From an uncultured Acetobacteraceae bacterium (GTDB lineage: Bacteria > Pseudomonadota > Alphaproteobacteria > Acetobacterales > Acetobacteraceae): DNA of 64,000 bases. Location of the stretch: positions 27,488 through 91,487 of the forward strand of contig CAXTJP010000001.1 in assembly GCA_964244615.1 (NCBI GenBank). The letters are read 5' to 3'. The notes beneath the pieces were generated by a model that was not told the origin of the DNA, did no database searches, and worked only from the letters and a program-made list of their open reading frames with translations. The position numbers and the translations under genes were made by a program. Shown in pieces: positions 1 to 27,857 of this stretch (position 1 is its first letter; each line of letters begins with the position of its first letter).

Positions 1-362
1 ACCAGGGTCCCATCCGGCAGTTCCAGGAGCGGCGCCTCGGGAAAGCTGCCGCGGCGATCCTTGGTGCCTTGCAACAGCAGCAGATGGGCATGCGCGCCGC
101 CATCGTCGGGCGGTGCCAGCTCGTAGAGTGCGCCCTGCCGCGCCCGCCCGCCCTGCCGCGTGGTGCCGGCCAGGGCGCCCTGGCTGGTGACCAGGGGAGC
201 CGAACGCGGGCTGGCGCCACGCTCGCCATCGAAGGAGAAGATCGTGGCGAGCGGGTTCGCCTGGGCACGTGCAGCCAGAAGGATCTGTGCGCACAGCCAA
301 AGGTAGGGTCCGGCGCGGAGGCCAAACGATCCAGTCCTGGTGGAACGGCTACGTGAGAGCAT
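1..362 (-). CDS. Secreted tandem beta-repeat protein (GloVer-type repeat-like), 5' part only; runs off the left edge
   Basis: My translation from ATG at 362 (overlaps the upstream acyltransferase end by 14 nt): MLSRSRSTRTGSFGLRAGPYLWLCAQILLAARAQA-NPLATIFSFDGERGASPRSAPLVTSQGALAGTTRQGG...GALYELAPP...GSFPEAPLLELPDGTL. Signal-peptide-like N-terminus followed by a repeat unit of the F.G..GA.P...L....G.L.GTT..GG....G.LYEL type. Not in the ORF track because it has no stop in the window. Confidence 0.6.
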   Translation of the reverse strand, partial: MLSRSRSTRTGSFGLRAGPYLWLCAQILLAARAQANPLATIFSFDGERGASPRSAPLVTSQGALAGTTRQGGRARQGALYELAPPDDGGAHAHLLLLQGTKDRRGSFPEAPLLELPDGTL

Positions 363-8657: not shown

Positions 8658-8747
8658 CAGGCGACGCCGAAGGACTGCCGCAGGCAGGGCGCGCGGGCCC
8701 TGCCCCGGAACGCGGCCCGGCACCCGTCGAGGACGTCTGTCATCCCG

Positions 8748-11006
8748 TCAGACCGGACCGGCGATCGCGACGTGATAGTCGCGGTAGCTGCGTGTGTAGA
8801 AGCCGTCCTCCCCCACCATGCGGGCGTAGCGGCGCAGATCGACACGGCCCAGCACGATGCCGGTGACCTGCACCTGCGCGCGGCGCAACGCCCGCACGGC
8901 GGCGACGACCGCGTTTCGGGGCGTGGCCGGCCAGCTGGCCATCAGCACGACCTGGTCGGCGAAGTGGCCGAGCTTGATGGCGTCGGCCACCGCCAGCACC
9001 GGCGGGGTATCGAGGACGATCAGGTCGTAGTTCTCCCGCAGATGCGTCAGCAGCGTCGTCAGGGCGGGCCAGCCCAGCAGGCCTTGCGGGCTGCCGATGA
9101 AATCGGCCAGGCAGATGTGGCGCAGGCCCGACCGCGCGTCGACGCCCGCCGAGAGCGCGATGTCCTCCACGCTCATCGCAAGGCCGCCCTCCGTGACGGT
9201 CGCCCTTGAGGGCGCCGTGGCGCGCGGGATCGCGGGATCGATCAAGGTGCGGATCGACGGGCGGCGCACGTCGCAGTCCAGGACTATGCCGGAGAACCCG
9301 GATCGCATGGCCGAGCGTCCAAGCGCCACCGACAGGCTGGACTTGCCCTCCCGCGGCAGGGCCGAGGTTATCAGCACCACCTTCCCGACCCCCGACCGCG
9401 CGGTGCGGTCGCCCAGCAGGGTGGCCAGGGTGCCTTGCACGGCCTCCGCCTCGACACTGAGCGGGTGGTCCACGATCACGTCCTGCGGCGACACGCGCCG
9501 TGTCATCGGGTGGAGGCCGATGACCGGCAGACCGATCTCGTCTTCGACCTGGCTGGCGTCGCGAAAGCCGCGCGAGCCCATGTGCAGGGCGAAGGCCAGT
9601 CCGGTGGCCAAGCCCAGGGATCCCAGGAAGGCGCCGGCCACCATCAGCCGTGTCTTCGGGAAAGCCGGGAAGTCCGGCGGCACGGCCTCGACGGCGATGG
9701 CCACCGCAGGCGGTTGCAGGCGGCGTTCGGCGGCCACCTGCTTCTGTCGCAGGAACAGGTTTTCGTACAGCGTGCGGTCGGACTGCGCCTCGTTCTCCAA
9801 CTCGGCCAGGCTGACGGTGTTGCTGCTCTGTGTGGCGACGCCCGATTGCAGGACGGCCACGTCCGCCGCGATGGCGGCCCGGCGCGCTTCCAGGGCCGAG
9901 ACCTCCCCCGCCACGCTGGAGACCAACTTCAACGCCTCCGCGCGCGTCTGCTGCGCGTTGCGCGCCAGGGCCGCCTCGGCCGCCGCGACGCCCGGAAAGG
10001 CGCTGCCGTAGTTGGCGCGCAGCTCGGCGACGTTGGCGGCCAGTTCGCCGTGCCGCACCAGCAATTGCTGGATCACGGTGGAACTCAGCGCCGGCGCCAT
10101 CGCCTCCAGCCGGCCGGACGCGACGGCCGCGCGCACCAGTTGCAAGGTGCTGCGTCGCTCCGCCAGCAGGGCAGTGACCGAGCTCAGATCCTGGCTGCGC
10201 TGTTCCAGCTGCGCCTCGGCCACCGTGCTCGGGCCGCCGCCCATCTCGTGCGTGCGAAGCCCGACCAGGCCGTGCGACTGCCGGTAATGTTCGATGCCTG
10301 CGTCGGCCGCCAGCATCCGCGCGCGAATATCCGCGACGTCACGCCCGAGCCCCGCTTCGGCCTCCTCGCTCACGCCGCTGCGGAACGCATGTTCGCGGGC
10401 GACGAAGGCGGCGGCGAAGCCGTTGGCCAGCCGTGCCGCCAGATCCGCAGACGCGGCGCTCGCCTGGACCTGTATGATGAACGACGATCGGTCCGTGCCG
10501 ACGGTGATGTCCCGCTGCAGCGCCTTGCCGGCGATCTCGGGCGAGGCGGCGCAGGCAGGGGCGGCCGGGGCCGCGCCGCCCAGCCTGCCCAGCAGTGCTG
10601 CCAGGAACGGCTTGGGACATTTCTGGAAGGCGGGCAAGCCGACCAGGTTCATCGCCACCGCGGCGTCGCGGGCGAGCACCGGCGAGCCAAGTGCCGCGAG
10701 GTAGGTACGAACCACCTCGAGGGACGGCGCCTCGACAGGCAGGAAGGTCGTGTTCACGTCGGCCACCCGCGGCTGCGGCACGTCGATGCGCAGGTCGGCC
10801 TCTGCGGTGTAGATCGGCGTCATCAGCCTGGTTGCGGCCAGCATCAGGGCCGCGGCGGTGCCCGCCAGGATCAGGAGCATCCATTTGCGCTGCCAGGCGA
10901 TCTGCAAAGGGCTGAGATCGCCGCCCCTTGCCGGCTCGCGGAGCATGGCGGGCCTGGTCTGGCCGTCAGCCAGCGTATCGGGATCGATCGTGGTGGCCAG
11001 CGTCAT
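8748..11006 (-). CDS. wzc: Wzc/GumC-type polysaccharide co-polymerase with tyrosine kinase domain
   Basis: Two TM segments flank a coiled-coil periplasmic region; Walker A-like ALPREGKS, LDCDVRRP and Walker B VLDTPP; C-terminal Tyr cluster FYTRSYRDY; GAGGA RBS before ATG 11006. Confidence 0.88.
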   Translation of the reverse strand: MTLATTIDPDTLADGQTRPAMLREPARGGDLSPLQIAWQRKWMLLILAGTAAALMLAATRLMTPIYTAEADLRIDVPQPRVADVNTTFLPVEAPSLEVVRTYLAALGSPVLARDAAVAMNLVGLPAFQKCPKPFLAALLGRLGGAAPAAPACAASPEIAGKALQRDITVGTDRSSFIIQVQASAASADLAARLANGFAAAFVAREHAFRSGVSEEAEAGLGRDVADIRARMLAADAGIEHYRQSHGLVGLRTHEMGGGPSTVAEAQLEQRSQDLSSVTALLAERRSTLQLVRAAVASGRLEAMAPALSSTVIQQLLVRHGELAANVAELRANYGSAFPGVAAAEAALARNAQQTRAEALKLVSSVAGEVSALEARRAAIAADVAVLQSGVATQSSNTVSLAELENEAQSDRTLYENLFLRQKQVAAERRLQPPAVAIAVEAVPPDFPAFPKTRLMVAGAFLGSLGLATGLAFALHMGSRGFRDASQVEDEIGLPVIGLHPMTRRVSPQDVIVDHPLSVEAEAVQGTLATLLGDRTARSGVGKVVLITSALPREGKSSLSVALGRSAMRSGFSGIVLDCDVRRPSIRTLIDPAIPRATAPSRATVTEGGLAMSVEDIALSAGVDARSGLRHICLADFIGSPQGLLGWPALTTLLTHLRENYDLIVLDTPPVLAVADAIKLGHFADQVVLMASWPATPRNAVVAAVRALRRAQVQVTGIVLGRVDLRRYARMVGEDGFYTRSYRDYHVAIAGPV

Positions 11007-11016
11007 GGTGCGTTCC

Positions 11017-12198
11017 TCAGAGTGCCGGCGCATAGACGGCTTGCGCGATGCCGGGGTGCGGGGCTGCGACCGTTTTTTTCAGCTCGAACACGGACATCGC
11101 GTCCATGACGAAATCCTTGAACTCCATTTCGAACCGCGCCTCGGAGAAGCGTCGCGCATTGTCGTGGCAGGCCTGCGCCGTGAAATCGGCTTGTCGGCGC
11201 AGGAAGATGCGGATCGCCCCGGCGACCGCGTCGGGCGTGGCGGTGTCGAAGAACAGGCCGGTCGGCGACGGCCCGTTCGCCACCACCGTCTCGCGCACCC
11301 CGCCGCGGCCCAGGGCGATGACCGGGGTTCCGGCCGCCTGCGCTTCCACCGCAATGATGCCGAAATCCTCCTCTGCGGCGAACACGAAAGCCCGCGCCCG
11401 CTGCATCAGGTCGCGCAGGCGCGCATCCTCCACGAAACCGAGCAGTTCCACGTTCGGACCGGCCAGCTTGCGCAACCGCGGCAGTTCGGGGCCGTCACCC
11501 ACCACCACCAATCGCCGGTCGGGCAGGTCGCGGAACGCCTCGACGATGACGCGCGCGTTCTTGTAGGGAACGAGGCGCGAGGCCGTCAGGAAGAAATCTT
11601 CCCTGGCCACGTTCGGCAGGCACGGCGGCACCCGAACCGGCGGGTGGATCACGGCGGCGGCGCGCCCGTAGAGTTTCTGCACGCGACGGCCGACAAAATG
11701 GGAGTTGACGACGTAACGGTCGACACCGGCCGCCGTGCGGACGTCCCAGATACGCATGAAGTGCAGGATCGCCCGGGTGACCCAGCTGCCCACGCCGCGA
11801 CTCAACCGGCTTTCCTCCAGGTATTGCGCCTGGAGATCCCAGGCGTAGCGCATCGGCGAGTGCACGTAGCTGACGTGCAGCTGGTCCGGGCCGGTCAATA
11901 CGCCCTTGGCGACGGCATAGCTGCTGGAGATGACCAGGTCGTAGCCGCGCAGGTCGAACTGTTCGACGGCCAGGGGCATCAGCGGCAACCACATGCGGTG
12001 ATTGCGCCTGACGAGCGGGAATTTCTGCAGGAACGAGGTGTGGCTGTCGACGTAGCCGAGCTTGCGGCGGTCGTCCGGACCCAGCATGTCGAACAGCGAG
12101 AACAGCGTCGCGTCTGGAAAACAACGCAGGATGGACCGCAGCACGCGCTCGGCACCGCCGATCGTGTAAAGCCAGTCATGGACCACAGCAACGCGCAT
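11017..12198 (-). CDS. Glycosyltransferase family 4 (WbaZ-like)
   Basis: Motifs VVHDWLYTIGGAERVL, YVHSPMRYAWD, SRLVPYK and EDFGIIAVEAQAAGTPVIA. Confidence 0.92.
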   Translation of the reverse strand: MRVAVVHDWLYTIGGAERVLRSILRCFPDATLFSLFDMLGPDDRRKLGYVDSHTSFLQKFPLVRRNHRMWLPLMPLAVEQFDLRGYDLVISSSYAVAKGVLTGPDQLHVSYVHSPMRYAWDLQAQYLEESRLSRGVGSWVTRAILHFMRIWDVRTAAGVDRYVVNSHFVGRRVQKLYGRAAAVIHPPVRVPPCLPNVAREDFFLTASRLVPYKNARVIVEAFRDLPDRRLVVVGDGPELPRLRKLAGPNVELLGFVEDARLRDLMQRARAFVFAAEEDFGIIAVEAQAAGTPVIALGRGGVRETVVANGPSPTGLFFDTATPDAVAGAIRIFLRRQADFTAQACHDNARRFSEARFEMEFKDFVMDAMSVFELKKTVAAPHPGIAQAVYAPAL

Positions 12199-12610: not shown

Positions 12611-12672
12611 GGCTCTCGTTCGAAACCTGTTCCCGAGAGCTATTAGCACTTGCAGCAAACGTCAATAAAAAT

Positions 12673-12871: not shown

Positions 12872-12969
12872 ATAGTTTGACAGCTTCAGTCATAACGCCT
12901 ACTTTCCTTACGGCAGGGGATCGACGCCGTTACAGCGCGTCCTTTGTTTATGAAATAAAGGGCGTGGTG

Positions 12970-14457
12970 ATGTCCCATTCATCGTCTTGCCTGGCACCCC
13001 CCGGTCTCGACGGGTTCGTCTCGACAAGCCCAACCTACAGAGAGGCGGCACGTCGTTGCTCACCGGCCCGGTTCGGCGCGCTCGTCGTGGCAGCCGACCC
13101 CGGCCTGATGATCCTTTCGGCCTTGCTGTCCATGCTGGCACTGCACATGATTTCCGGTGGCGCATGGCACGTCGGCGACATCGCTCTCGGTCCGGTCCCG
13201 GCGCTGATCACGCTTGCCGTCCTGGGTCGCCCCGACACCGGTGCGCTCGCCGAACTGCGCCGCACCATCCGCGTGCACAGCTCGGCACAGCTCGCCATAC
13301 CGGCAGGCGGGGCCGGGCTCGTCCTGGCCGCCATCGCGACCCATCACACCGCCGAAGACGCGATGCTCGGCGCCGCGGTGTGGCTGTTCAGTTCCACGGC
13401 CCTTCTCCTGTTCCGTTCCGTTGCAGCAAGGTTTTTCGCCGATCGCTGGTCGCGCAACGACTATCTCAGATTGTGCGTGGCGCTCGTCGGCACGCCCGAG
13501 GAGACAAGGATGCTTGCCGTCCAGCTGCCCGGCGCCGGTGCCGTGCCGCCGGTCAGCATCGTCGGCTGCTACGACGACACCGTCGTCAACCGCATCCAGC
13601 CACTCGGTGCGTCAGCCTGGCCGGGCGGGCTCGGCGCCCTGTTGAGCCTCGACCACGGCAGCGTGCCCGATGCCGTCCTGATCGGCGTGCCGGGCAGCGA
13701 CGCCGATCGCCTCTCACGGGCGCTGTCCGCGTTGGGCGGGCTCGCGACCACTCTCTGCGTGGCGGCACCCGCCGACGCCGCCGGCTACGGCCGAGCGCGC
13801 CTGGGCGACCTCGCACTCGGTGTCGTAGCGCGGCCGCTTTCCGGCTGGCAGACGACCCAGAAGGACATCTTCGACCGCGTCGGCGCGTTCCTGCTCCTGA
13901 TGCTGGCGCTGCCGTTCATGGCGGCGATTGCCGTGGCGATCCGTTGCGAAACGGCCGGTCCTGTCCTGTTCCGGCAGCAGCGGACCGGCCTCGGCAATCG
14001 ACCGTTCACCTGCCTGAAGTTCCGCACCATGCATCATCGCCCGCCTCTGGAGGGCCAGGCCGCCGCGTTCCAGCAGACCGTGCGCGGCGACCATCGCGTG
14101 ACGCGGGTCGGCGGATGGCTGCGCCGGACCAGCCTCGACGAGTGTCCGCAACTGCTGAACGTCCTGCGTGGCGACATGTCGCTGGTGGGCCCCCGGCCGC
14201 ACGCGCCGAACACCACGGCCGACGGGCGGTTGTTCCAGGACATCGTGACCGATTACGCCAGCCGTCATCGCGTCCGGCCGGGCATCACCGGTTGGGCGCA
14301 GGTCAACGGTTATCGTGGCGAAACCCCCGACGCCGCTTCGGTCGTCCAGCGCGTGCAGCACGACCTGTTCTACGTCGCGAACTGGTCGATGCTGCTCGAC
14401 CTGCGGATCCTGATGCGAACCGCACTCTGCGTCCTGCACGATCCGCAGGCCTTTTGA
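12970..14457 (+). CDS. Undecaprenyl-phosphate sugar-1-phosphate transferase (priming GT, WcaJ/GumD-like)
   Basis: N-terminal TM segments; C-terminal bacterial sugar transferase domain [55 protein letters not shown] and DLFYV. Confidence 0.92.
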
Positions 14458-14491
14458 ACGCGAAGACCCTTTCGAAGACAGGCAGGATTTC

Positions 14492-15754
14492 ATGAAGACC
14501 GACGTGATCATTATCGGAGCAGGGCCTTTCGGGTTGTCGCTGGCGGCGATGCTGCGGGAACGCGGCGTGAACCACCGCATCTTCGGAACGCCGATGCATA
14601 CCTGGCGCACGGCCATGCCCGCGGGGATGAACCTGAAATCGGAAGGCTTTGCCTCCGACCTCTACGGAGGCGGCGCCGGGCTGACCTTGCAAACCTATTG
14701 CGCCGCGCGCGGCATTCCATACCGGGCCGCCGGACTGCCGGTGAAGCTGGACGTCTTCACAGCCTATGGCGAAGCCTTCCAGCGCGGCCTCGTGCCGCAG
14801 CTCGAGAAACGCCAGGTGGTGGGCGTGCAACGCGCGCCGGGCGGCTACGCCGTCGAGATCGAGGGCGGCGAGCAATGCCGGGCCACCCGCGTCGTGGTGG
14901 CGGCCGGCATCACCCATTTCGCGCATCTCCCCGAGACGCTGCGCAGCCTGCCGCCCTCCCTCTGCGGCCATGCCTCGCGCTTTCCGGACCCGGCGCGCTT
15001 TGCCGGCCGGCGGCTGGCGGTGGTCGGTGCGGGTGCGTCGGCCACCGATTACGCGGCCCTTGCCGCAGAAGCGGGGGCGCAGGTCAGCATGATCGCGCGC
15101 GCGCCACGCGTGAACTTCTTGCAGCCGCCCTCCGGCCGGCCGAGGAGCCTGGCGGAGAGCCTGGCGGCGCCGCAATCGGGTCTGGGACCGGGGTGGCGTT
15201 CACGCATGGCCACGGACGCGCCGCTGGTGTTCCACCGCATGCCGGAGGCCTTTCGTCTGCTGGTGAACAAGCGCCATCTCGGCCCCGCCGGCGGCTGGTG
15301 GACCAGGGAGAGCATCGAGCAACGGGTCGACCTGCGGTCCGGCACCAGCGTGGTGGCAGCCCATCGGGCCGGCGAGAGCGTGGCGCTGGATCTGCTGCAC
15401 GCATCGGGGCAAACCAGCCGCCATGTCGTGGACCACGTCGTTGCGGCCACCGGCTACCGTCCGGACCTGCAGCGCCTGACGTTTCTCTCGCCCGAGCTGC
15501 GATGCCTGCGAACCGTGGCCGGCGCCCCGGCGCTGTCGTCCCAATTCGAATCATCGTCGCCCGGACTGCATTTCATCGGCCTGGCCTCGGTGCATGATTT
15601 CGGTCCGCTCGTGCGGTTTGCCTTCGGCGCCGATTTCTCGGCGAGCCGACTGTCGCGCTTCCTGGCCCGGCAGAGCCGTACCAGCGTGGCCGGCTACCGG
15701 GCGCCGTCCACCGTCGCCATCCCGGCCGACGCCATGGCCGGCGACCTCGCATGA
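14492..15754 (+). CDS. FAD/NAD(P)-dependent oxidoreductase (flavin monooxygenase-like)
   Basis: Two Rossmann motifs, IIGAGPFG and VVGAGASA, plus AATGY; AGGA RBS. Confidence 0.85.
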   Translation: MKTDVIIIGAGPFGLSLAAMLRERGVNHRIFGTPMHTWRTAMPAGMNLKSEGFASDLYGGGAGLTLQTYCAARGIPYRAAGLPVKLDVFTAYGEAFQRGLVPQLEKRQVVGVQRAPGGYAVEIEGGEQCRATRVVVAAGITHFAHLPETLRSLPPSLCGHASRFPDPARFAGRRLAVVGAGASATDYAALAAEAGAQVSMIARAPRVNFLQPPSGRPRSLAESLAAPQSGLGPGWRSRMATDAPLVFHRMPEAFRLLVNKRHLGPAGGWWTRESIEQRVDLRSGTSVVAAHRAGESVALDLLHASGQTSRHVVDHVVAATGYRPDLQRLTFLSPELRCLRTVAGAPALSSQFESSSPGLHFIGLASVHDFGPLVRFAFGADFSASRLSRFLARQSRTSVAGYRAPSTVAIPADAMAGDLA

Positions 15755-17067
15755 GGGCGGAGACGATCGTCCTGCACGAAGGCTGGAGCGGCGATCCCGA
15801 AACCCACGCCTGCGCGGTGCCGATCTACCAGACCGCCGCCTTCACCTTCGACAGCGCCGACCACGGCGCGGCGCTGTTCAACCTCGACGTTCCGGGCAAC
15901 ATCTATACCCGGATCGGCAATCCGACTTCCGCGGTGCTCGAGGCGCGCCTGACGGCCCTCGAGGGCGGCGTGGGGGCGTTGACGACAAGTTCCGGCGCGG
16001 CGGCGATCCACTACGCGCTGGACTGCCTCGTGCAGTCCGGCGACAACATCGTCTCCCTGCCGGAACTCTACGGCGCCACTTACACCCTGCTGGCCCATGT
16101 GATGCGCGCGCGCGGGGTGCAGGTGCGCTTCGCCGATTCCGACCGGGCGAATGACGTGGCCAGGCTGATCGACGAGCGGACACGCTGCGTCTACTGCGAA
16201 AGCGTCGGCAACCCGGCCGGCACCATCGCCGACCTCGCGACCCTGGCACGCGTGGCCCATGCCGGCGGCGTTCCGCTGATCGTGGACAACACGGTCGCCA
16301 CCCCCATCCTGTTGCGCCCCATCGAGTTCGGCGCCGACGTGGTGGTGCATTCGCTGACCAAGTTCATCGGCGGCCACGGGACGTCGCTCGGCGGCGCCAT
16401 CGTGGATGCCGGCAACTTCGACTGGGCGAGCCAGGGCGATCGCTTCGCGATGCTGGTCCAGCCAGAGCCCGCCTACCACAACGTGGTCTATACCGAGCAA
16501 TTCGGCCGCGCGGCTTTCGTCGCGCGCTGCCGTACCGTGGGGCAGCGCAACACGGGGGCGACGCTGTCGCCGTTCAACGCCTTTCTCATCCTGCAGGGTC
16601 TGGAGACGTTGCCGTTGCGGATCGAGCGGCATGTGAGCAACGCGCGGGCGGTTGCGGTTTTCCTGCGCGGGCACCGGCATGTCGCGTGGGTGAACTACGC
16701 GGGCTTCGCCGATTCGGTGCACAACGAGCGGCTTGTGGCGTATCTCGGCGGCCAGGCGCCGGCGCTGCTGACCTTCGGCGTGATCGGTGGTTGGGAGGCC
16801 GGCAAGCGCTTCCTCGATTCGCTGCGCATGTTCAAGCGGCTGGTGAACATGGGCGACGCGAAGTCGCTGGCCACGCATCCTGCGTCGACCACACACCGGC
16901 AGCTGTCGGGGCAGGAACTCGCACGGGCCGGGGTGGCGCCGGAGATGATCCGGCTGGCCATCGGACTCGAACACATCGATGACATCCTGGCGGATCTCGA
17001 CCAGGCGCTGCGGCACTCGGCCGCGACGCCGGCCGTGCAACTGCTCGAAGACGCGTTCGCACAGTGA
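15751..17067 (+). CDS. metY: O-acylhomoserine aminocarboxypropyltransferase (sulfhydrylase), MetY family
   Basis: Motifs [27 protein letters not shown] lysine [18 protein letters not shown] and IRLAIGLEH; ATGA overlap with the upstream gene. Confidence 0.88.
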
Positions 17068-18020
17068 ACGTGCTCGCGCCCATCAGGCTGTGGCCACGTC
17101 ACGACATCGAGGCCGGGCATGACCGGCCGCTGGTCATAGGATTGCTGAACAACGCGTCCGAGGCGGCGTTCCGCACGACCGAGCGCCAGTTCGCACGGCT
17201 GTTGAACAACGCGTCGCCGGGGCCGGCCGTCATCCTGCGCAGCTATGCCCTGCCGGAAATCCATCCCGACCCGATCGCCTGCCTGCGCCACAGCCACTCC
17301 CACCTCTCGATGGACATGCTGCGCTGCGTGCCGCCCGACGGTCTCATCGTCAGCGGCGCAGAACCCGGCTCCGCCAGCCTGAAGGACGAGCCTTACTGGC
17401 GATCGCTGGTGGCGGTGCTGGACTGGGCACGCGCCGCGCGCTTGCCGACGATACTGTCCTGCCTGGCCGCCCATGCCGCCGTGTTGCACGCATCAGGCAT
17501 CGAGCGGCGCCGGCTGGTGCGCAAATGCACCGGCATCTACCCGATCAGCGCGGCGGCAAACCACTGGCTGTTGCCCAAATTGGGGCCGAACCCCTGCATG
17601 CCGCACTCGCGCTGGCACGAGCTCGACGAGAGAGCCCTCGTCCAAGCCGGCTACGTGGTTCTCACGCGTTCGGCGCAGGCGGGGGTGGACATGTTCGCGT
17701 CACCCGACGAGGACGCCTGGCTTTTTTTCAACGGGCACCCCGAATACGACGAGGACACGCTGATGAAGCAGTATCGGCGCGACATCGGGCAGTTCCTGCG
17801 GGGCGAGCGCGCGGACTATCCGGACCTGCCGTGCCAGGACATGGCGCCGGCGACGGCTCGCCGTCTTGCCATGGTGCGTCGGCTGGCGCTGGCCGGCCTG
17901 CCGACACGGGCCATCGAGGCTTTCCCGGCGACGGAGCAGGCGGGAACGCCCGCCTGGCGGCAGATGGCGGCCGGCGTCGTCGGCAACTGGCTGATGAGGG
18001 TTCGTGACCGTGTGGCCTGA
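17064..18020 (+). CDS. metA: Homoserine O-succinyl/acetyltransferase family protein (MetA-like, divergent)
   Basis: Motifs TERQFARLL, DGLIVSGAEPG, nucleophile Cys in LSCLAAHAA, PHSRW and catalytic HPEY; GTGA overlap with metY. Confidence 0.8.
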   Translation: MNVLAPIRLWPRHDIEAGHDRPLVIGLLNNASEAAFRTTERQFARLLNNASPGPAVILRSYALPEIHPDPIACLRHSHSHLSMDMLRCVPPDGLIVSGAEPGSASLKDEPYWRSLVAVLDWARAARLPTILSCLAAHAAVLHASGIERRRLVRKCTGIYPISAAANHWLLPKLGPNPCMPHSRWHELDERALVQAGYVVLTRSAQAGVDMFASPDEDAWLFFNGHPEYDEDTLMKQYRRDIGQFLRGERADYPDLPCQDMAPATARRLAMVRRLALAGLPTRAIEAFPATEQAGTPAWRQMAAGVVGNWLMRVRDRVA

Positions 18021-19242
18021 AACCCCCGCCCTCGACTCCCGCCCGGCGACGGGCAGCCGGTTCTTGCCTGTCGTTCGGATGGCGTTTTGCACCGTGCTGG
18101 CGCGCGACGATGGCGGCGATGGCGACTTCTTCGACCTCGGCGGGGACTCGATCCTGGCGGTCGAACTGTTCCTGACGCTGCGTCGCCTGACGGGCATCGA
18201 GCTGCCGATCACCGCCATCTACGACGCATCCACCGTCGGCAGCCTGGCTGCACTTCTGGATGAGGGCGCGGTTGTCGGCCAGCGCTCCTGCGTGGTGGCG
18301 TTGCGGCCGGCGCGTGCCGGCTGCACCCTGCCCCCGCTCTTTGTGGTGCATGGCATGGGCGGGCTGGCGCTGACGTTCCGCGACATGGCGTCGCGCCTGG
18401 AAGACGGCCGCGCCGTCTATGGCATCGAACCGCAGGGACTGGACGGCACGCAAACCCCCTTGGAAACGGTCGAGTCGATGGCGGCGCTGTACCTCGACGC
18501 GGTTCGCGCCATCCAGCCCTGCGGCCCCTATGCCTTCGCCGGCTACTCCTTCGGCGGCCTGGTGGCCTTCGAGATGGCGTGCAGGCTGCACGAGCAGGGC
18601 TGCGTCGTCGAACCGCTCATCCTGCTGGACAGCTTCTCGCATCCGCAGCGCTGGCCGATGGACGCCCGCCTGTACGCGCTGCGTTCGCTGCTGCCGACCT
18701 ATCTCTCGGGCGGAGCCGTTCGGCGGCTGCTCGACTATTACGTCCGTCGCATCCGGGCGCTGCCGAAGGCCTCGGTTCCCGCCTACCTGGCGGGTGCCCT
18801 GTTGCGGGCCGTGCGGTCGCCCCTCGATGTCGGGCGAGCGGGGTTTGCGACGCGCATGGCAGCCTCGGCGCAGCGTTATGCGCCGCCCGACACGGCCGAA
18901 ACGGCGCTGCCGGCCTTGGCACAGGTGACACGCGCCTGCCATCGCGCGTTCCGCGCCTATGCACCCGGCTACCTTCCCGGGCCGTTGACGATCGTCAAGG
19001 CGGAGCAGGAGGATTTCCTGCCGTTCTCGCCAAGGCTGGTCTGGCGACGTCATTGCCTGCGCGTCACAGTCAGGCGCGTGCCGGGCGGCCACCAGCGTCT
19101 CGTCCGCCTGGGCTCGGCATCGCTCGCGGCCGAACTGTCCGCCTGCCTGGCGGCAGCAGCGGACGAGGCCGGCTCGGCAGCGATGCCCGATCGGACCGCG
19201 CTGCCAGCGGCCACCGGCTGGCCCGCCGGCCAGTGCGCATGA
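18004..19242 (+). CDS. Carrier protein (phosphopantetheine-binding) fused to thioesterase
   Basis: DFFDLGGDSILAVELF carries the Ppant Ser; the TE domain has LFVVHGMGG, GYSFGG (GxSxG), LLDS and a C-terminal GGH. Confidence 0.87.
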   Translation: MTVWPETPALDSRPATGSRFLPVVRMAFCTVLARDDGGDGDFFDLGGDSILAVELFLTLRRLTGIELPITAIYDASTVGSLAALLDEGAVVGQRSCVVALRPARAGCTLPPLFVVHGMGGLALTFRDMASRLEDGRAVYGIEPQGLDGTQTPLETVESMAALYLDAVRAIQPCGPYAFAGYSFGGLVAFEMACRLHEQGCVVEPLILLDSFSHPQRWPMDARLYALRSLLPTYLSGGAVRRLLDYYVRRIRALPKASVPAYLAGALLRAVRSPLDVGRAGFATRMAASAQRYAPPDTAETALPALAQVTRACHRAFRAYAPGYLPGPLTIVKAEQEDFLPFSPRLVWRRHCLRVTVRRVPGGHQRLVRLGSASLAAELSACLAAAADEAGSAAMPDRTALPAATGWPAGQCA

Positions 19243-20786
19243 TGCCGTGTCCCACGCTGGACGGGGGCGATGCCGCGGCGCTGCTGCGGACCTTGCCGGA
19301 CAGCATTTCCGAGATGCTGGCGGCATCGGTGCGGGAGGGGCCGCACCGGTTGGCCGTCACCGACGAGACTGGTCGCTGGACATACGCGGACCTTGCCGCC
19401 GGCGTGGACGCAGCGATGGCCGTATTGGCAGAAAACGGGCTCGGCAGCGGCATGCGGGTGCTGCTGCTGGGCGAGAACCGCCGCGCGACGGTGGCCATGC
19501 TGTTGGCCGTGCTGGCAGCGGGGGCCTGGGCCGTGCCGCTCAATCCCAGGATGGCGCAGGCGGAGCTCGACGGCATACGCGATCATGCCGACGCGTTCAT
19601 GGCGGTGTACTGCCTGGACGAAGCGCCGCAGGTGCGCGCGCATGCCGCGCGTTACGGCGCGGACCTGATCGACGTGCCGGGCGTGGGCAGGATCGGCCTC
19701 GAACGGATCGGCGGCGGCGATCAGGTGGCGGCAGCCAACGGACGCGTGGCCGTCCTGATCTACACGTCCGGCAGTTCCGGCACGCCGAAGGGCGTGATGC
19801 TGACGCACCGCAACCTGTTGTTCATGGCAGCCGCGTCGGGTGCGGTACGGACGCTGGGGCCGGCCGACCGGCTTTACCTCGTGCTGCCGCTTTCGCATAT
19901 CGTGGGGCTTGCGGTGATCCTGCTGGGCGGCCTGTTGCATGGCGCCACGGTGCAGCTTGCTTCACAGTTCCGGCCGCGCGAACTGTTCCGCGCGTTGGCG
20001 GAGGACGGCGTCACCATCCTGCTCGGCACGCCGGCGCTGCTGACGTTCCTGCTGGACCATGCGCGGACGCGGCCCGCGCCCTCGACACCGCGGCTGCGTA
20101 TCGTGTCGGTCTCCGGCGCGCCGCTGGACCAGGCCACCAAGGTGCGCGCCGAAGCCCTGTTCGGGCTGACCCTGCATCATGGCTACGGCATTACCGAATG
20201 CGCGCCCACCATCGCCCAGACACGCCCCGAGGCGCCGCGGTCCGACTGCTCGGTCGGCCGTCTGCTGCCGGGGATGCAGGCGCGCCTGGTCGACCCGGCC
20301 TCCGGCCTGGCGGCGCGCGACACCGGCGAACTGCACGTGCGGGGGCCAAACATCATGCTCGGCTACTTCCGCGCGGAGGAGGAGACCGCGCGCCTGTTGG
20401 ATCGGGACGGCTGGTTCAACACCGGCGACCTCGCGCGCGTCGAGGACGGACATCTGTTCATCGTCGGCCGCACCAAGGAGATGGTGATCCGCTTCGGGTT
20501 CAACGTCTATCCGGCTGAGATCGAGGCCGTGCTGGTAACGCATCCGGGCGTCAGGGCCTGCGCGGTCGTCGGGCACAGCGATGGCGGCGAGGAGCAACTG
20601 ATCGCGTTCGTCGAACCGCTTCCCGGTCGGGACGTGACCGCGGAGAGGCTGATGCGTCACGCGGCTGAGCATCTGGCCTCCTACAAGCGCCCGAGCCGGC
20701 TGGTGCTGCTGCCCGCCTTGCCGATGACACTCTCCGGCAAGGTGCGGAAGTCGGAGCTGATGCAGCTCGCCTGCGTGCCCGCGTGA
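19239..20786 (+). CDS. Stand-alone adenylate-forming enzyme (acyl-CoA/acyl-carrier ligase class)
   Basis: Motifs YTSGSSGTPKG, HGYGITE, NTGDL, GRTKE and SGKVRK; ATGA overlap with the carrier-TE gene. Confidence 0.9.
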   Translation: MMPCPTLDGGDAAALLRTLPDSISEMLAASVREGPHRLAVTDETGRWTYADLAAGVDAAMAVLAENGLGSGMRVLLLGENRRATVAMLLAVLAAGAWAVPLNPRMAQAELDGIRDHADAFMAVYCLDEAPQVRAHAARYGADLIDVPGVGRIGLERIGGGDQVAAANGRVAVLIYTSGSSGTPKGVMLTHRNLLFMAAASGAVRTLGPADRLYLVLPLSHIVGLAVILLGGLLHGATVQLASQFRPRELFRALAEDGVTILLGTPALLTFLLDHARTRPAPSTPRLRIVSVSGAPLDQATKVRAEALFGLTLHHGYGITECAPTIAQTRPEAPRSDCSVGRLLPGMQARLVDPASGLAARDTGELHVRGPNIMLGYFRAEEETARLLDRDGWFNTGDLARVEDGHLFIVGRTKEMVIRFGFNVYPAEIEAVLVTHPGVRACAVVGHSDGGEEQLIAFVEPLPGRDVTAERLMRHAAEHLASYKRPSRLVLLPALPMTLSGKVRKSELMQLACVPA

Positions 20787-20820
20787 GGACGTTTCGCGGC
20801 CGGCCCCGGCGAGCGCGGGC

Positions 20821-22152
20821 ATGACACCGCCGCCGAGCATGGGGGCTGCCACGCCGTTGGCATTGGCACGAACGGCCCCGGCCGCGAGCGAAGTCTCAAC
20901 GACGAGGCAGCGCCGTGGCCCTGTGGATGGCACGCCAGGCCAGCCCGGCTCCACGCCCGCCGACAGGCTCGCCTGGCTGGATGCCATGCGGCTGCTCACC
21001 ATGGTCGAGATCCTGGGCTTTCACTGGCTGAGAACGTGCCAGGAGAACGGCAGCTTCGGACTGACCTGGTCGCCAGGATACGAGGACGTGGGCAGGGGAT
21101 TGCACCAGATCGGTTACTTGCTGACCGACCAGACGGGTTTGTCGGCAGCGTCGTTCTGCAACAACCTGATCGGCCTTGTTTTCGGCTATGGCTGGGAGGC
21201 GGTGAACGTGTTCGTGATGCTGAGCGGCATCGGCCTGGCGCTCAGCTACCGTCGCGGCACGGCTCTGCGGCCCTGGTATGCGCGGCGATACCGACGCATT
21301 CTCGTGCCGTACTACCTGGCCTGCTTTCCGCTGATACTCGCAGCCGAAATGCTCAGGCAGGTCGGCAGCGGGCGTCCGGGCATGCTCGGTCATCTCGCCG
21401 CCAAGCTCACCGTCAAGAACCTGCCCGATCCGCTGGGCATCGAACTGGCCAAGCACCTGGTCCTGATCGACCCGCGGCAGTTTCTCGGCATCATCGACTT
21501 CTTCTCGCCGGCCTGGTGGTTCTTGCCGCCGATCCTGTTCGCCTACCTGCTGTTTCCAGGCCTCGTCTGGTTGTTCGACCGCCTGGGTGCTGCTCCCGTG
21601 CTGGCGGCGGCGTTCGTCATCTCACTGTCGGCGTACGAGCTCACCCATTTCGGCCTGCTGCCCGAGCACGGCTGGTACTTCGTGGCGCTGCACGAATGCT
21701 TCGACTTCAACCTTGCGATCTGGGTGGGCCTTCGTCTGCGCAGCGATGGCGGCCGGGCGCACATCGCGCGTTGGCTGCGCTCGCCCACGGCTTTGGCGAT
21801 CGGCGCGGCCGCTTTCGTGGCCGGCAACGTGTTGAGCTGGTTTTCGCCGACGCATTTCGTCGCCAGCTGCGTGTTCGCGCCCGGGCTTGCGATCCTGTTG
21901 GGCTGGATGTCGATCCATCTGACCCGCCTGCACTGGACGGCTGGCGCAGCCCGGAGGTGGGACACGTATTTCATCTATCTTCTGCACCAGTGGATCGCCT
22001 TTCCTCTTGTGCTTGCCACCGCGCTGCTGGCTGGTCCGTTGGCCCATTCCGTCGGCTTCGCGGCAGGAATGCTGGCCTATCTCTGCCTCGTGCTGCTCGT
22101 GGTGGCCGTGTTTTCCCGGACAGTGGCGTACCTGCCTGCAGCTTTGCGGTAA
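20821..22152 (+). CDS. Acyltransferase family 3 membrane protein (divergent)
   Basis: Motifs WLDAMRLL, AVNVFVMLSG, RRYRRILVPYY, WWFLPP and TYFIYLLH; multi-TM. Confidence 0.78.
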   Translation: MTPPPSMGAATPLALARTAPAASEVSTTRQRRGPVDGTPGQPGSTPADRLAWLDAMRLLTMVEILGFHWLRTCQENGSFGLTWSPGYEDVGRGLHQIGYLLTDQTGLSAASFCNNLIGLVFGYGWEAVNVFVMLSGIGLALSYRRGTALRPWYARRYRRILVPYYLACFPLILAAEMLRQVGSGRPGMLGHLAAKLTVKNLPDPLGIELAKHLVLIDPRQFLGIIDFFSPAWWFLPPILFAYLLFPGLVWLFDRLGAAPVLAAAFVISLSAYELTHFGLLPEHGWYFVALHECFDFNLAIWVGLRLRSDGGRAHIARWLRSPTALAIGAAAFVAGNVLSWFSPTHFVASCVFAPGLAILLGWMSIHLTRLHWTAGAARRWDTYFIYLLHQWIAFPLVLATALLAGPLAHSVGFAAGMLAYLCLVLLVVAVFSRTVAYLPAALR

Positions 22153-22167
22153 GCGACGCCACGGCGA

Positions 22168-23526
22168 TCAGAGAAAGGTGCTGGCCGTCTGTTCAAGCGG
22201 CCGCCGGGAGAGAGCGGCGTGCTTGGGGCCGGCGTCCACCATGCCGACATGCTTGGCCCTCCAGCGGGCGAGCATACGCGCCAGCAATCCACGGTCGGGC
22301 CACGGCAGACGCACCAGTTCGGCCAGCAAGCGCGGATCGTCCCAGGGGACGTCATGGAAGGCTTCGTGCAGGGCCGGCATGGTCGGGTCCTGCCGCCAGG
22401 CCTGGGGGAACAACGCGATCGTCTTGTTGACCGTCGACGGTTCGCTCGACACGGCGAGGCCGGTCATCGTGCCTGCCAAAGCCGACATGGGATCGCATCC
22501 CACCCCCAGGGCCAAGGATGCCAGCGGCGTGCTTCTGCCGTTCAACTCGATGAGATGTGCCCGGCCGGTGGCGGATTCCACGATGAAATCCAGGCCGCAA
22601 AACCCCGACAGGCCGAGCTGCCCGACGAGTTGCTCCGCCATGTCGCGCATCTCGGCGTTGTCGGTGACCTGCACCACGGTGGACGCACCGACTTCGGTTC
22701 TTGCCTTGAGGACGTTGACGTATATGCCGCCCAGCACACGCCCTCGCCTGCAGGACACCACGCAGTTTGCCGGATGACCCTCGACGTACCGTTGCAAACT
22801 GACGCGCGGCACGGCACGGGAAAGACAAGGCAGCACGTGAAACGCGTCGCGGTCGACAAGCAAGCGTTTGAGGGCGCGCACGACCGGCAACGGCCGCGAC
22901 AGCTTTTCGAAGGCTGCCTCGGCCTGGGCGGCGCTTCGAACGACCACCACACCCAGACCGCCCCAGGTCCCGTCCACCTTCATCACAGCCGCCGCGCCCA
23001 GCGCTTCGAACGCAACGCCGGCAGACGCGGCCGAGTTGACCTCCAACGTCTCAGGCGCACGCAGCCCGGCCGATCGCGCACAGCGTATGAGTTCGACCCG
23101 GCTGTCCACGATCGGGAAGCTCGCGGGAGAGCCCAGGGAACGCTCGAGAATATCGCGCCGATGTGTATCGGACCGTTCGTAGAGGCAGTGGAGATGCGAC
23201 AGCGCCCGGTCGTCGCACGGCACCACCAGATCGGGTCTCGCTGTCCCGATCGCCTTGCCAAGCGAACCGATGGGACGCACTGCAGAATAACGATGCAGCC
23301 GGTGCACGCCCCGGGTCTTGTAAAGCGGATGTCCGACCGGGCAAACCGCCTCGACGCGAAACCCCAGTTTGTTGAACCGCGCGGCCATGCGTGCAGCAAA
23401 CGCCCACCATACCGTCGTGGTGAGAAGGACGGTCGGCACTTTCGCTCCGACATGCAACAGGTCGCCACCGTGCGGTAGGTCCAGTTGCGCGTGCAGGTGT
23501 GCGAGCGAGCTCGAAAGCGAAGTCAT
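22168..23526 (-). CDS. ATP-grasp domain protein
   Basis: Motifs VVPCDD, VMKVDGTWGGLGV, LQRYVEG, GLSGFCGLDFI and LIELNGR; start placed at ATG 23526. Confidence 0.8.
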   Translation of the reverse strand: MTSLSSSLAHLHAQLDLPHGGDLLHVGAKVPTVLLTTTVWWAFAARMAARFNKLGFRVEAVCPVGHPLYKTRGVHRLHRYSAVRPIGSLGKAIGTARPDLVVPCDDRALSHLHCLYERSDTHRRDILERSLGSPASFPIVDSRVELIRCARSAGLRAPETLEVNSAASAGVAFEALGAAAVMKVDGTWGGLGVVVVRSAAQAEAAFEKLSRPLPVVRALKRLLVDRDAFHVLPCLSRAVPRVSLQRYVEGHPANCVVSCRRGRVLGGIYVNVLKARTEVGASTVVQVTDNAEMRDMAEQLVGQLGLSGFCGLDFIVESATGRAHLIELNGRSTPLASLALGVGCDPMSALAGTMTGLAVSSEPSTVNKTIALFPQAWRQDPTMPALHEAFHDVPWDDPRLLAELVRLPWPDRGLLARMLARWRAKHVGMVDAGPKHAALSRRPLEQTASTFL

Positions 23527-24030
23527 GGACGCGATACGCACCCTCTCACCAGTATACGGTATCGACAGCCTCCCCGGGGAGCGCGTCCCATGGGAGCTTT
23601 CTTCTTCAACCAGCCGCTTGACACGCCGACACGACAAACACCCTTCTGTCAGAAGACGTTGCCGACCGGACATGAAAGGACGAGGAGCCACTGCACGGCG
23701 CGATCCAGCGCAAGTCTGCTCGGAAGATCAATCCGGAGAAGCTGCGCCAAACCAAGTTCTACATGGCAAGATATCGTCGACAAAGTCAACGATTGTGGTG
23801 ATCCCGACGGCCAGGATTCGCAGGATCAAATAGTCCTTTGAGTCATGGCGGGCTCTGCATGCTGCCATCGACGGTTGCAGACTTTCCCGCTGAACCTGAA
23901 AAGTCGGCGTGTCCGAAGGGAGCGAGCCTGTTCACCGCCGGCGCCAGGACAGTCCAGCATGGTCGCCGGCTCACGATGTTCCGCGTCCGAAAGACCTGTA
24001 GTGTCCGCCTGCGCCATGCTATGCCAAGCA

Positions 24031-25134
24031 ATGGGAACCGCGACCCTTGCTTCTCTGCGCACCGGGCGACCGGACTTCCCGACGATCCAGGTTCTGCGAG
24101 CCCTGGCGGCCTTGATGGTCGTGGCCTTCCATGCCTTGGAAGCGTGGCAACGATTGCTGGATCCACGACACGCGACGGCCGCCTGGCCGAACGGGTCTGC
24201 CGGGGTCGATCTGTTTTTCGTCATCAGCGGCTTCGTCATCGCTATCGCCTCGCGCAGCCTGGCAGGCGGCCCGCTTGGCTGGCGCCTGTTTCTCATGCGG
24301 CGGTTGCAACGGATCGTCCCTCTGTACTGGCTGCTGACCACGTGCATGCTGGCCATGGTGCTCCTCGCGCCAGCGCTCGCGCCGCATATCCAGCCCGGTG
24401 TCTGGAACACCGCAGCGTCGTACCTGTTCGTCCCGTCTTACGACAGGGCAGGCCTGCTGCGGCCTGTGCTCACGGTGGGCTGGACCCTCAACTTCGAAAT
24501 GCTGTTCTACGTCCTGTTCGCAGCCGCCCTCGCCTGGCGGATTGCACCGCTCAAGCTGCTCCTGCCGATCCTGCTGCCGCTGGCGCTGCTCGGTTTCTTT
24601 CGCCTTGACAGCTGGCCGGCCGTGACGTCGCTCGCCAACAGCCTGGTGCTGGAGTTCTGCTTCGGGATCGTGGTGGCCCAGATCCACATGTCAGGCCGTC
24701 GCGTCTCGCCTGCCTGGGCCTGGTGTCTTTTGGTCGGTGGTTGCTGCCTGCTACCGACCTTGCCTGACGCGGGTGCTGCACGCGGGTTGGTTTGGGGCCT
24801 TCCGGCGGCCGCGATCGTGTTGGGCGCGACGATGCTGGAGCCTGTACTGGGGCCGTATATCCCGGTCCTCGCTCTTGAGCTCGGTGATGCCTCCTACGCC
24901 ATCTACCTGGTACACCCGTTCATCGTTCCGGCGCTGGCTCATGGGTTCCGACACCTGCCTGTGTCGCGCGGTGCGCTGCTGTTCATCGAAGTCGGCGCCT
25001 CGATACTGGCAAGCGGGCTCGCCGGCAGACTGCTCAACCAGCGTTTGGAACGGCCTATGCTGGCCTGGTTCAGGCGTGGACGCCCGCAGCGCAGCGTGGA
25101 GGCCGCTCAGCCTGTGCCAATGGGCACGGCCTGA
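24031..25134 (+). CDS. Acyltransferase family 3 (ExoZ/OafA-like)
   Basis: Motifs IQVLRALAALMVVAFH, GVDLFFVISGFVI, RRLQRIVPLYW, VGWTLNFEMLFY and GDASYAIYLVH. Confidence 0.88.
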   Translation: MGTATLASLRTGRPDFPTIQVLRALAALMVVAFHALEAWQRLLDPRHATAAWPNGSAGVDLFFVISGFVIAIASRSLAGGPLGWRLFLMRRLQRIVPLYWLLTTCMLAMVLLAPALAPHIQPGVWNTAASYLFVPSYDRAGLLRPVLTVGWTLNFEMLFYVLFAAALAWRIAPLKLLLPILLPLALLGFFRLDSWPAVTSLANSLVLEFCFGIVVAQIHMSGRRVSPAWAWCLLVGGCCLLPTLPDAGAARGLVWGLPAAAIVLGATMLEPVLGPYIPVLALELGDASYAIYLVHPFIVPALAHGFRHLPVSRGALLFIEVGASILASGLAGRLLNQRLERPMLAWFRRGRPQRSVEAAQPVPMGTA

Positions 25135-27185: not shown

Positions 27186-27557
27186 TGCTGTTTCCCGAAT
27201 GGGGGTCGACCGGAGCCTGCCCCTGAACAGATCGATCTCGTTGCGGACACGCCCTTGGACTCGTCGAACATCTGGCTGGACGACGCGCGCCATCCGGCCG
27301 ATCAGGGCCGTTCCGCGCAGCGCTGACACGGCTGATCGCGGCGCGGCATTCTGCATTGCTGGCAAGCCTGGCACAGTGACATGACTATCGGTCTGTAGCA
27401 GGCTCCACGGAAGCTTACAACCTTAAGCTGTCATATGATGACTTATTCTACTCAAGGTAGCGTCTTCTTGTTGCTGCCCATCGTTGCCAGTTGACGTCGT
27501 TTTGCTTAGTCACTATCGTTCCATCAGGGTACAGGTACCAGGGCTCGGTAAGCACTG

Positions 27558-27749: not shown

Positions 27750-27857
27750 CAGCCTGCGGGGACGGCAAACACTGGCGAACTTGGCTGGGCCGGTGAGTTG
27801 GCCGACTTTAGCGAAGCGCTTGCGATCGGCCGCATCACCATGCCGGAGGAGTTGAGC

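Follow-up and report, generated by a model that had tools for sequence, protein, structure and literature searches.

A carrier protein and homoserine acyltransferase cassette in an exopolysaccharide locus of an uncultured Acetobacteraceae bacterium

Why should an exopolysaccharide (EPS) locus carry a homoserine O-acyltransferase, a sulfhydrylase-like enzyme of the kind used in methionine synthesis, and a carrier protein fused to a thioesterase? The question is raised by a 64,000-nucleotide stretch of DNA (the window; about 69% G+C) from an uncultured soil bacterium of the Acetobacteraceae (GCA_964244615.1, contig CAXTJP010000001.1, positions 27,488 to 91,487), in which such genes follow the priming glycosyltransferase of an EPS locus between positions 12970 and 22152. 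An earlier reading of the letters (the original prediction) saw here an assembly line that makes an unusual acyl or aminoacyl group and transfers it to the EPS in the manner of the Dlt system. The analysis presented here leads to a related answer: the genes belong to a real, conserved and uncharacterised cassette, a candidate variant of carrier-protein-based polysaccharide tailoring, for which the chemistry and the acceptor are offered as proposals.

The cassette and its relatives

The genes of the cassette and its immediate partners are as follows, with profile matches in brackets.

12970..14457, + strand: priming polyprenyl-phosphate glycosylphosphotransferase (PGT), the first gene of the + operon (Bac_transf, 212 bits; TIGR03025, EPS_sugtrans, 319.7 bits, cut-off 295.55)
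14492..15754, + strand: class-B flavin monooxygenase, N-hydroxylase-like, a flavoprotein with two dinucleotide folds (Pyr_redox_3, Pyr_redox_2, partial Lys_Orn_oxgnase)
15751..17067, + strand: MetY-like gamma-replacement enzyme of the O-acylhomoserine sulfhydrylase family, dependent on pyridoxal phosphate (PLP) (Cys_Met_Meta_PP, 396 bits; TIGR01326, 576 bits, cut-off 495)
17064..18020, + strand: HTS, a MetA-like homoserine O-acyltransferase (PF04204, 161 bits; NF003776, 303 bits, below the cut-off of 358)
18004..19242, + strand: peptidyl carrier protein (PCP) fused to a type-I thioesterase, together PCP-TE (PP-binding, 53.9 bits; Thioesterase, 96.5 bits)
19239..20786, + strand: stand-alone acyl-AMP ligase, which presumably charges the PCP (AMP-binding, 246 bits, and AMP-binding_C)
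20821..22152, + strand: membrane acyltransferase-3, AT3a (Acyl_transf_3, 52.8 bits)
22168..23526, − strand: ATP-grasp ligase, convergent and inverted here (weak CPSase_L_D2; probable start at Met56 of a 507-aa open reading frame)
27798..29279, + strand: group-II PLP-dependent amino-acid decarboxylase (Pyridoxal_deC, 122 bits)

The first seven are the near-contiguous, same-strand genes of the original prediction, all of them confirmed by the profile matches and by reading out the junctions; the last two, which are conserved partners, had been overlooked. Gaps of 34 bp separate PGT from the flavoprotein gene and the ligase gene from AT3a. All the other junctions are overlaps: 4 bp between the flavoprotein and MetY-like genes (ATGA, at 15751), 4 bp between the MetY-like and HTS genes (GTGA), 11-17 bp between HTS and PCP-TE, and 4 bp between PCP-TE and the ligase (ATGA, at 19239), where the ligase ATG overlaps the stop codon of PCP-TE. 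The spacing suggests that the seven genes are co-transcribed. A scan of the locus for consensus promoters and terminators gave matches no better than chance level.

The related loci (numbered L001 and so on) come from the gene contexts of PCP-TE homologues, from GTDB genomes, in which 80 loci were scanned, and from counts made by tblastn and clustering. No other marker is as rare as PCP-TE, for which a set of 5.8 billion clusters yields 82 homologues. A four-gene core of MetY, HTS, PCP-TE and ligase is found together in about 25 loci of Alphaproteobacteria and Acidobacteria, and the ligase adjoins PCP-TE in about 20. The MetY-HTS pair is always accompanied by a branch that removes a carboxyl group, which is the PLP decarboxylase in the window, L001, L003 and L114, and elsewhere a branched-chain aminotransferase (BCAT)-like enzyme with a thiamine diphosphate (ThDP) decarboxylase, to which some loci add an aldehyde dehydrogenase (adjacent to this branch in L020, L029, L039 and L067). 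Orthologues of the window decarboxylase, at 60-71% identity, are present in the L001, L003 and L114 cassettes, and that of L114 lies immediately 3' of the ligase. The flavoprotein occurs with the core in at least 13 loci. The ATP-grasp gene lies directly upstream of the flavoprotein gene in L001, L003, L086, L114, L139, L145 and L146, and PGT adjoins the cassette in L001, L002, L003, L086 and L146. One version of the cassette is present on at least 24 metagenomic contigs.

Co-occurrence with EPS loci in other genomes had been proposed as the test of the original prediction, and the core does recur in polysaccharide loci. In about half of the loci, every close relative included, the cassette lies within Wzx/Wzc/glycosyltransferase operons (L001, L002, L003, L004, L086, L114, L146), beside Wzc (L011, L012, L027) or beside an exosortase (L029, L039, L067). 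This synteny upholds the view that the MetY, MetA, carrier-thioesterase and ligase genes form a conserved set in their own right.

Five kinds of arrangement are seen. The alphaproteobacterial EPS type comprises the window, L001/L146, L002, L003, L004, L086 and G011/L114. Here, ATP-grasp and flavoprotein genes precede the core, in the midst of genes for PGT, GT4, Wzc, Wzx and Poly_export, and genes for an LCM-type methyltransferase and an Abhydrolase_2 (Abh2) esterase often lie between those of the core. In L001 and L146, the cassette occupies the middle of an operon, on the same strand, with PGT on one side and GT4-Wzc-Wzx on the other, while the closest relative, G011/L114, reads Wzx-Wzc-GT4 followed by ATP-grasp, flavoprotein, MetY, HTS, PCP-TE, Abh2, ligase and decarboxylase. 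Given these two orders, the window cassette is a rearranged copy in which the ATP-grasp gene has been inverted, the decarboxylase gene displaced and an acyltransferase-3 gene inserted. An apparent gene fusion in G011 proved to be an open-frame artefact.

In the second arrangement (L011/L012), the core comes with BCAT and the ThDP enzyme, followed by the flavoprotein, ATP-grasp, Wzc, MsrB and MsrA. The third is acidobacterial (L020, L027, L029, L039, L067 and, seen in part, L032 and L033), and has exosortase, aldehyde dehydrogenase, BCAT, PCP-TE and ThDP enzyme genes opposite those for ligase, HTS, MetY and flavoprotein. In the fourth, the Rhizomicrobium type (about 11 loci), cupin, MarC, BCAT and ThDP enzyme genes are set opposite MetY, HTS, PCP-TE and ligase; MetY-HTS is kept and the flavoprotein is absent. 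One Rhizomicrobium metagenome-assembled genome (L084:12585-21113) encodes, after the ligase, a very large protein (over 2,800 aa) whose GH94 and glycoamylase domains make it resemble cyclic beta-1,2-glucan synthase. The fifth consists of cut-down versions, from EPS loci of the genus to which the window belongs: PGT-Wzc-decarboxylase next to MetY-HTS-WecG in L118, TE-decarboxylase-MetY-HTS-ligase in L116, and ATP-grasp-flavoprotein-MetY-HTS-Abh2 in L139, which has neither PCP-TE nor ligase. Trios of MetY, HTS and decarboxylase are found in other EPS loci of the genus (L116-L119). L145 (5311-10239) has just the ATP-grasp and flavoprotein genes, next to the PGT of an EPS locus and without MetY, HTS or PCP-TE.

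The unit is thus modular, being made up of MetY-HTS with a carboxyl-removing branch, PCP-TE with the ligase, and ATP-grasp with the flavoprotein. Since MetY-HTS occurs without carrier and ligase in the EPS loci L118 and L139, the thiotemplate part is separable, which weakens the original interpretation. The ATP-grasp and flavoprotein pair may be a widespread EPS-tailoring unit, given the size of the flavoprotein family (1451 homologues at E<1e-20, with generic names only).

The MetY-HTS pair is an accessory one and does not belong to housekeeping metabolism. In the genome, which is metagenome-assembled, 3.07 Mb in size and 92% complete, HTS is the sole enzyme of its kind and the MetY-like enzyme the sole close MetY; a MetX-type homoserine acetyltransferase (466 bits) is encoded on another contig, and the genome has three further Cys/Met PLP enzymes elsewhere. 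Among 24 other genomes of the genus, HTS is present in 11 and the MetY-like enzyme in 12, always near each other, and some complete genomes have neither. In a PMSF maximum-likelihood tree, all 34 cassette-linked MetYs form one group (99/96 support). Of the 11 further alphaproteobacterial MetYs in the tree, ten fall apart from this group, and the last, L124, which has a long branch, is its nearest outside neighbour. The acidobacterial cassette MetYs are sister to those of the alphaproteobacterial EPS type, which points to transfer of the cassette between phyla.

A proposed tailoring pathway

What might such a cassette do? The window locus has several markers of a Wzx/Wzy-type EPS locus, namely a priming PGT, a Wzx flippase, a Wzc co-polymerase/kinase and several GT4 and GT2 genes. 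The reading preferred here, which we rate about evenly between right and wrong, is that the cassette is a modular pathway for tailoring the surface polysaccharide of this locus. It rests on the gene set and its intact catalytic motifs, the synteny of the core across two phyla, the embedding of the cassette in EPS loci, the two alternative carboxyl-removing branches, the accessory character of MetY-HTS, the MetY-HTS-decarboxylase trios in EPS loci of the genus, the ligase as partner of PCP-TE, and the L145 pair beside a PGT.

The pathway would start with HTS, which would O-acylate L-homoserine, probably with a succinyl group. Alignment with E. coli MetA (7cbe) and 2h2w shows that the active-site Cys, the His and Glu of the GHPEYD motif and the acyl-selectivity Gly are all kept. 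The MetY-like enzyme would then exchange the acyl group at C-gamma, most likely for sulfide, giving a dedicated homocysteine pool, or else for something that yields another gamma-substituted amino acid. It matches solved O-acetylhomoserine sulfhydrylases with 464 bits and the C-C-forming FUB7 with 414 bits, so that sulfide is a likely, though not a certain, nucleophile.

Removal of the alpha-carboxylate would leave a C3 unit. In the window, this step would fall to the group-II decarboxylase and give an amine, for example, 3-mercaptopropylamine; in the relatives, the BCAT-like transaminase and ThDP decarboxylase, with or without aldehyde dehydrogenase, would give an aldehyde or an acid, the latter open to the ligase. 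The decarboxylase is a generic group-II enzyme with weak matches to diaminobutyrate (DABA) and aspartate decarboxylase models, and its relatives in the PDB are DOPA decarboxylase, GADL1, CSAD and DfoJ. The suggestion that it might act as an aldehyde synthase equal to the BCAT and ThDP pair is unsupported: one Tyr aligns with the Tyr that is varied in 4riz/4rj0 vs 4rit, which is weak evidence. The ThDP enzyme and aminotransferase of the relatives pass PRK07586 and PRK13356, and the next best match of the ThDP enzyme is benzoylformate decarboxylase.

The flavoenzyme would oxygenate a heteroatom of the unit, either N or S. Its best Foldseek matches (TM about 0.6) are DesB, KtzI, PvdA, DfoA and putrescine N-hydroxylase, with YpdA and SMFMO, a bacterial FMO, close behind. 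Neighbours of other cassettes include msrB and msrA (L011:17600-18958, and likewise in L012), which lie directly 3' of the ATP-grasp and Wzc genes behind the cassette. Their presence could be a sign of thioether or sulfoxide chemistry, or a coincidence.

The acyl-AMP ligase would load a carboxylic acid onto the PCP, from which the fused thioesterase would release it by acyl transfer, not by hydrolysis. The attachment serine for phosphopantetheine (GGDS) is kept in 24 of 27 carrier homologues, and the thioesterase triad of S182 (GYSFGG), D209 and H363 is invariant in the alignment of the same number. The ligase is presumed to be the partner of PCP-TE because the two genes are adjacent, because start and stop overlap, and because distant homologues are fused. 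These distant homologues (L031, L046, L049, L061, L065, L069 and L081, at about 8300-11000) are A-T-TE proteins of about 890 aa from Cyanobacteria, Alphaproteobacteria and Acidobacteriota, with no MetY or HTS nearby. In another set (P0045-P0057), PF21394 stands ahead of PCP-TE.

A stand-alone adenylation enzyme had been predicted, and an AMP-binding enzyme that stands alone is what the locus has; its best family matches, however, are acyl-CoA ligases (NF004837, 332 bits), and it looks acyl-CoA-ligase-like rather than aminoacyl-activating. It scores 192.6 bits against the amino-acid adenylation model TIGR01733, below the cut-off of 317.4, and its nearest PDB entries are 8weu and 8wev (fatty-acyl/feruloyl-CoA synthetases) and the malonyl-CoA synthetase MatB (4fuq). 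None of the proteins of the locus matches a condensation domain.

On one metagenomic contig (L002:10001-12136), a single 711-aa protein, P0016, comprises HTS, a carrier domain and a thioesterase, so that homoserine acyltransferase and thiotemplate part are physically joined. It gave rise to the idea that HTS uses an acyl group borne by the PCP instead of CoA. Such use is not taken to be obligatory, as L139, L118 and L119 keep MetY-HTS without PCP-TE and ligase.

The ATP-grasp enzyme, whose AlphaFold model (pLDDT 81.5) resembles PurK, biotin carboxylase and L-amino-acid ligases, would form an amide, for example, to a sugar carboxylate. The lipid-linked repeat unit, primed by PGT and decorated in this way, would be flipped and exported by the Wzx and Wzc of the divergent operon, and the acyltransferase-3 enzymes would make ordinary O-acyl additions.

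Several findings weigh against this tailoring pathway. About 11 Rhizomicrobium-type loci, flanked by MarC, cupin and amino-acid permease genes, have no EPS gene within 10 kb, so that the core can serve a purpose without a neighbouring EPS locus. The EPS-embedded loci are often interrelated and hence are not independent observations. No transferase that joins the product to a sugar was identified. FUB7 is nearly as close to the MetY-like enzyme as the true sulfhydrylases are, the AlphaFold model of the flavoprotein is of only moderate quality (pLDDT 69.5), and the fold matches of the ATP-grasp protein are generic. Finally, the 92%-complete genome yielded only an AcpS-type phosphopantetheinyl transferase, the single PF01648 match being an AcpS-like 140-aa open reading frame on contig 59 (818-1096), while there are four carrier domains in the whole genome (contigs 3, 11 and 48 are among the sites). 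PCP-TE must be served either by AcpS or by a transferase within the missing 8%.

The more specific the chemistry, the more tentative the claim. That the chemistry is sulfur-specific at all is rather doubtful. That a mobile cassette of soil and peat bacteria uses a carrier protein to equip EPS with a thiol derived from homocysteine, be it 3-mercaptopropylamine or 3-mercaptopropionyl, with N- or S-oxygenation as a further possibility, is, taken whole, an unlikely though concrete proposal.

Competing explanations

The most serious competitor is a free-standing small-molecule pathway of NRPS-like type (A and T-TE). Its product would be diffusible, being a thiol, a hydroxamate or a metabolite of the N-acyl-homocysteine type that serves as metallophore, signal or osmolyte, and its genes would simply tend to travel in variable islands for surface polysaccharides. 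We think this improbable, if well worth keeping in mind. The Rhizomicrobium-type loci, with their MarC and permease flanks, speak for it, as do the patchy distribution of the cassette and its movement between phyla. Minimal thiotemplate release units typically consist of a T-TE protein and a ligase that stands alone, as here, and the distant relatives are A-T-TE proteins. A decarboxylase with an N-hydroxylase-like flavoenzyme is the opening logic of hydroxamate siderophores (DesA/DesB, RhbB/RhbE), and the flavoprotein model here matches DesB, PvdA and DfoA best. On the other hand, the closest relatives have the cassette inside an EPS operon, on the same strand from PGT to GT4-Wzc-Wzx, ATP-grasp and flavoprotein are linked to EPS even without the core, and the trios of MetY, HTS and decarboxylase turn up in several distinct EPS loci within the genus. 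Unlike siderophore starter pathways, the cassette lacks an NIS synthetase, an IucB-type acyltransferase and uptake genes, and in many loci that keep the flavoenzyme, BCAT and the ThDP enzyme replace the decarboxylase. No IucA/IucC-type synthetase or TonB receptor was found among the scanned neighbours of the window locus, and no dedicated exporter was seen there. Judged by these neighbours, the cassette is not a member of a siderophore pathway.

It is also conceivable that the EPS setting is right and the chemistry is not that of sulfur, with the MetY-like enzyme making a C-O, C-N or C-C bond; this overlaps the tailoring reading and is unlikely in its own right. Two versions can be imagined. 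In the first, which follows the logic of cycloserine, a hydroxylamine made by the flavoenzyme would attack O-acylhomoserine and the ATP-grasp enzyme would close or ligate the product. D-cycloserine synthesis by DcsE, DcsD and DcsG is the serine analogue of this pairing of an O-acyltransferase and a PLP replacement enzyme, again with an ATP-grasp enzyme, so that the gene set here mirrors it. In the second, which follows FUB7, an aldehyde from the ThDP decarboxylase would be added at C-gamma. Fusaric acid synthesis likewise employs a dedicated O-acyltransferase and PLP replacement enzyme (Fub5/Fub7) for a non-proteinogenic amino acid, and FUB7 is a close structural relative; fusaric acid and D-cycloserine, however, are diffusible metabolites of fungi and actinomycetes, not products of EPS loci. 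The bit scores of FUB7 and the true sulfhydrylases (414 against 464), the N-hydroxylases at the top of the flavoprotein fold matches and the ThDP decarboxylase of the relatives as a source of aldehyde all favour non-sulfur chemistry. The MetY-like protein nevertheless exceeds the curated sulfhydrylase cut-off, the Rhizomicrobium-type loci keep MetY-HTS without a flavoprotein, and MsrA and MsrB are neighbours in L011. Furthermore, the acidobacterial aldehyde dehydrogenase beside BCAT suggests that the aldehyde is turned into an acid for the ligase, rather than used by MetY.

A third explanation, which is very unlikely, is that the product modifies something other than a glycan, such as exosortase-sorted PEP-CTERM proteins or a lipid anchor. 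An exosortase is directly beside the cassette in L029, L039, L067, L032 and L033, and a curated family of exosortase-A-associated acyl-CoA ligases exists (TIGR03098). The exosortase of the present genome, however, is on another contig, and none is near the alphaproteobacterial loci. Membership of TIGR03098 was considered and rejected: the L086 ligase reaches 217.3 bits against a cut-off of 592.35, and the family is not among the 25 best matches of the window ligase. The cassette is thus not a member of the exosortase-ligase family, and the 2006 PEP-CTERM paper makes no mention of exosortase-linked ligase or carrier genes.

The weakest explanation, that MetY and MetA do no more than supply the organism with methionine by direct sulfhydrylation, among unrelated neighbours, has in its favour that these are the two families of that route, intact in their catalytic residues, past the TIGR01326 cut-off and the only HTS and close MetY of the genome, but it is scarcely credible and was rejected, given the MetX-type and Cys/Met PLP enzymes elsewhere, the absence of both genes from half of the genus, complete genomes included, the separate MetY clade that takes in acidobacterial sequences and is mobile between phyla, and the ties of the pair to the thiotemplate genes through translational coupling to PCP-TE and the P0016 fusion.

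Known systems and the rest of the locus

Carrier-protein chemistry within polysaccharide loci is, to our knowledge, rare and poorly understood, and we know of no homoserine-to-homocysteine branch wired to a PCP-thioesterase in an EPS operon. Full-text literature searches on the gene combination, or on an exosortase-linked ligase and carrier set, found no description, and a search on DiatB (PDB 8z12) found nothing relevant.

By analogy, the closest precedent would be the carrier and ligase pair of the tetronate branch of the Vibrio cholerae O1 O-antigen, which is likewise an AMP-forming ligase and a carrier protein within a surface-polysaccharide locus. In that branch (VC0248-VC0252), the carrier RfbK and the AMP-ligase RfbL/WbeL handle 2,4-dihydroxybutanoate, which has the carbon skeleton of homoserine and ends up amide-linked to a sugar (PMC3441752, PMC12208996). 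The tetronate pathway itself rests mostly on homology. Its locus differs in having no MetA or MetY, fused thioesterase, flavin monooxygenase, ATP-grasp enzyme or decarboxylase, and the likeness is one of description, not of protein comparison.

The Dlt system for D-alanylation of teichoic acids (DltA/DltC/DltB/DltD) is similar in that it decorates a surface polymer with the help of a carrier and an adenylating enzyme that stands alone, and the original prediction had extended the parallel to a final transfer by the acyltransferase-3. This end step was rejected as a conserved feature, because no homologue of AT3a follows the ligase in any related locus. The AT3a family has 11 proteins, with members elsewhere in the EPS loci of G011 and L139; AT3a belongs to the locus but is no part of the conserved cassette. 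Furthermore, the carrier is fused to a thioesterase, whereas DltC is free, and the membrane protein is an acyltransferase-3, whereas DltB is an MBOAT. Nothing similar to DltD was found among the scanned neighbours, and no DltA model is among the 25 best NCBIfam matches of the ligase. The analogy holds only as a ligase and a carrier that decorate a surface polymer. What survives of the original interpretation is the conserved, uncharacterised, EPS-linked unit; the Dlt-like step and the aminoacyl ligase are not supported, and the link to EPS is not seen, within 10 kb, in the Rhizomicrobium-type loci.

If the proposals are true, a homocysteine-derived thiol on EPS would be a redox-active or metal-binding glycan substituent without described precedent, and the thiol or hydroxamate group may affect metal binding, cross-linking and the redox behaviour of the matrix. 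The cassette is common to two phyla that dominate acidic soils and peat, so that its product may be a common, unseen feature of the soil biofilm matrix. The separable modules now defined (MetY-HTS, PCP-TE with ligase, ATP-grasp with flavoenzyme, and the two carboxyl-removing branches) are open to ordinary enzymology.

On the other side of a 770-bp control region (12199-12969) lies a divergent EPS operon, and further genes follow the cassette downstream.

349..12198, − strand: divergent EPS operon, in the order GT4, Wzc-like, Wzx, GT4, GT4, 523-aa protein, GT2, acyltransferase-3
11017-12198, − strand: GT4, first gene of the divergent operon
8748-11033, − strand: Wzc-like protein (TIGR01005, 161 bits; Wzz, GNVR and kinase-domain matches)
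7290-8747, − strand: Wzx (Polysacc_synt and Polysacc_synt_3 matches)
2359-3930, − strand: 523-aa open reading frame with no family match
349-1488, − strand: acyltransferase-3 of the divergent operon
23845..25134, + strand: a second acyltransferase-3, downstream of AT3a (Acyl_transf_3, 84 bits)
25212..27374, − strand: 720-aa protein at the edge of the locus, with no Pfam or NCBIfam match

Wzy_C and Poly_export had no match among the window reading frames scanned; Poly_export is present in the related L001, L002 and L086. Two small open reading frames in the control region (12332-12646, + strand, and 12383-12658, − strand) have no Pfam match, and a single promoter-like site is found there at 12847-12876. 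The order GT4-Wzc-Wzx-glycosyltransferases-acyltransferase-3 of the divergent operon recurs in G011 (L137). Homologues of the 720-aa protein (cluster 45) flank the cassette in L001 and L003, and the protein probably belongs to this type of EPS locus.

Acyltransferase-3 genes are ordinary members of these EPS operons. The window locus has three of them (349-1488 on the − strand, 20821-22152 and 23845-25134 on the + strand), and L139 has a similar pair.

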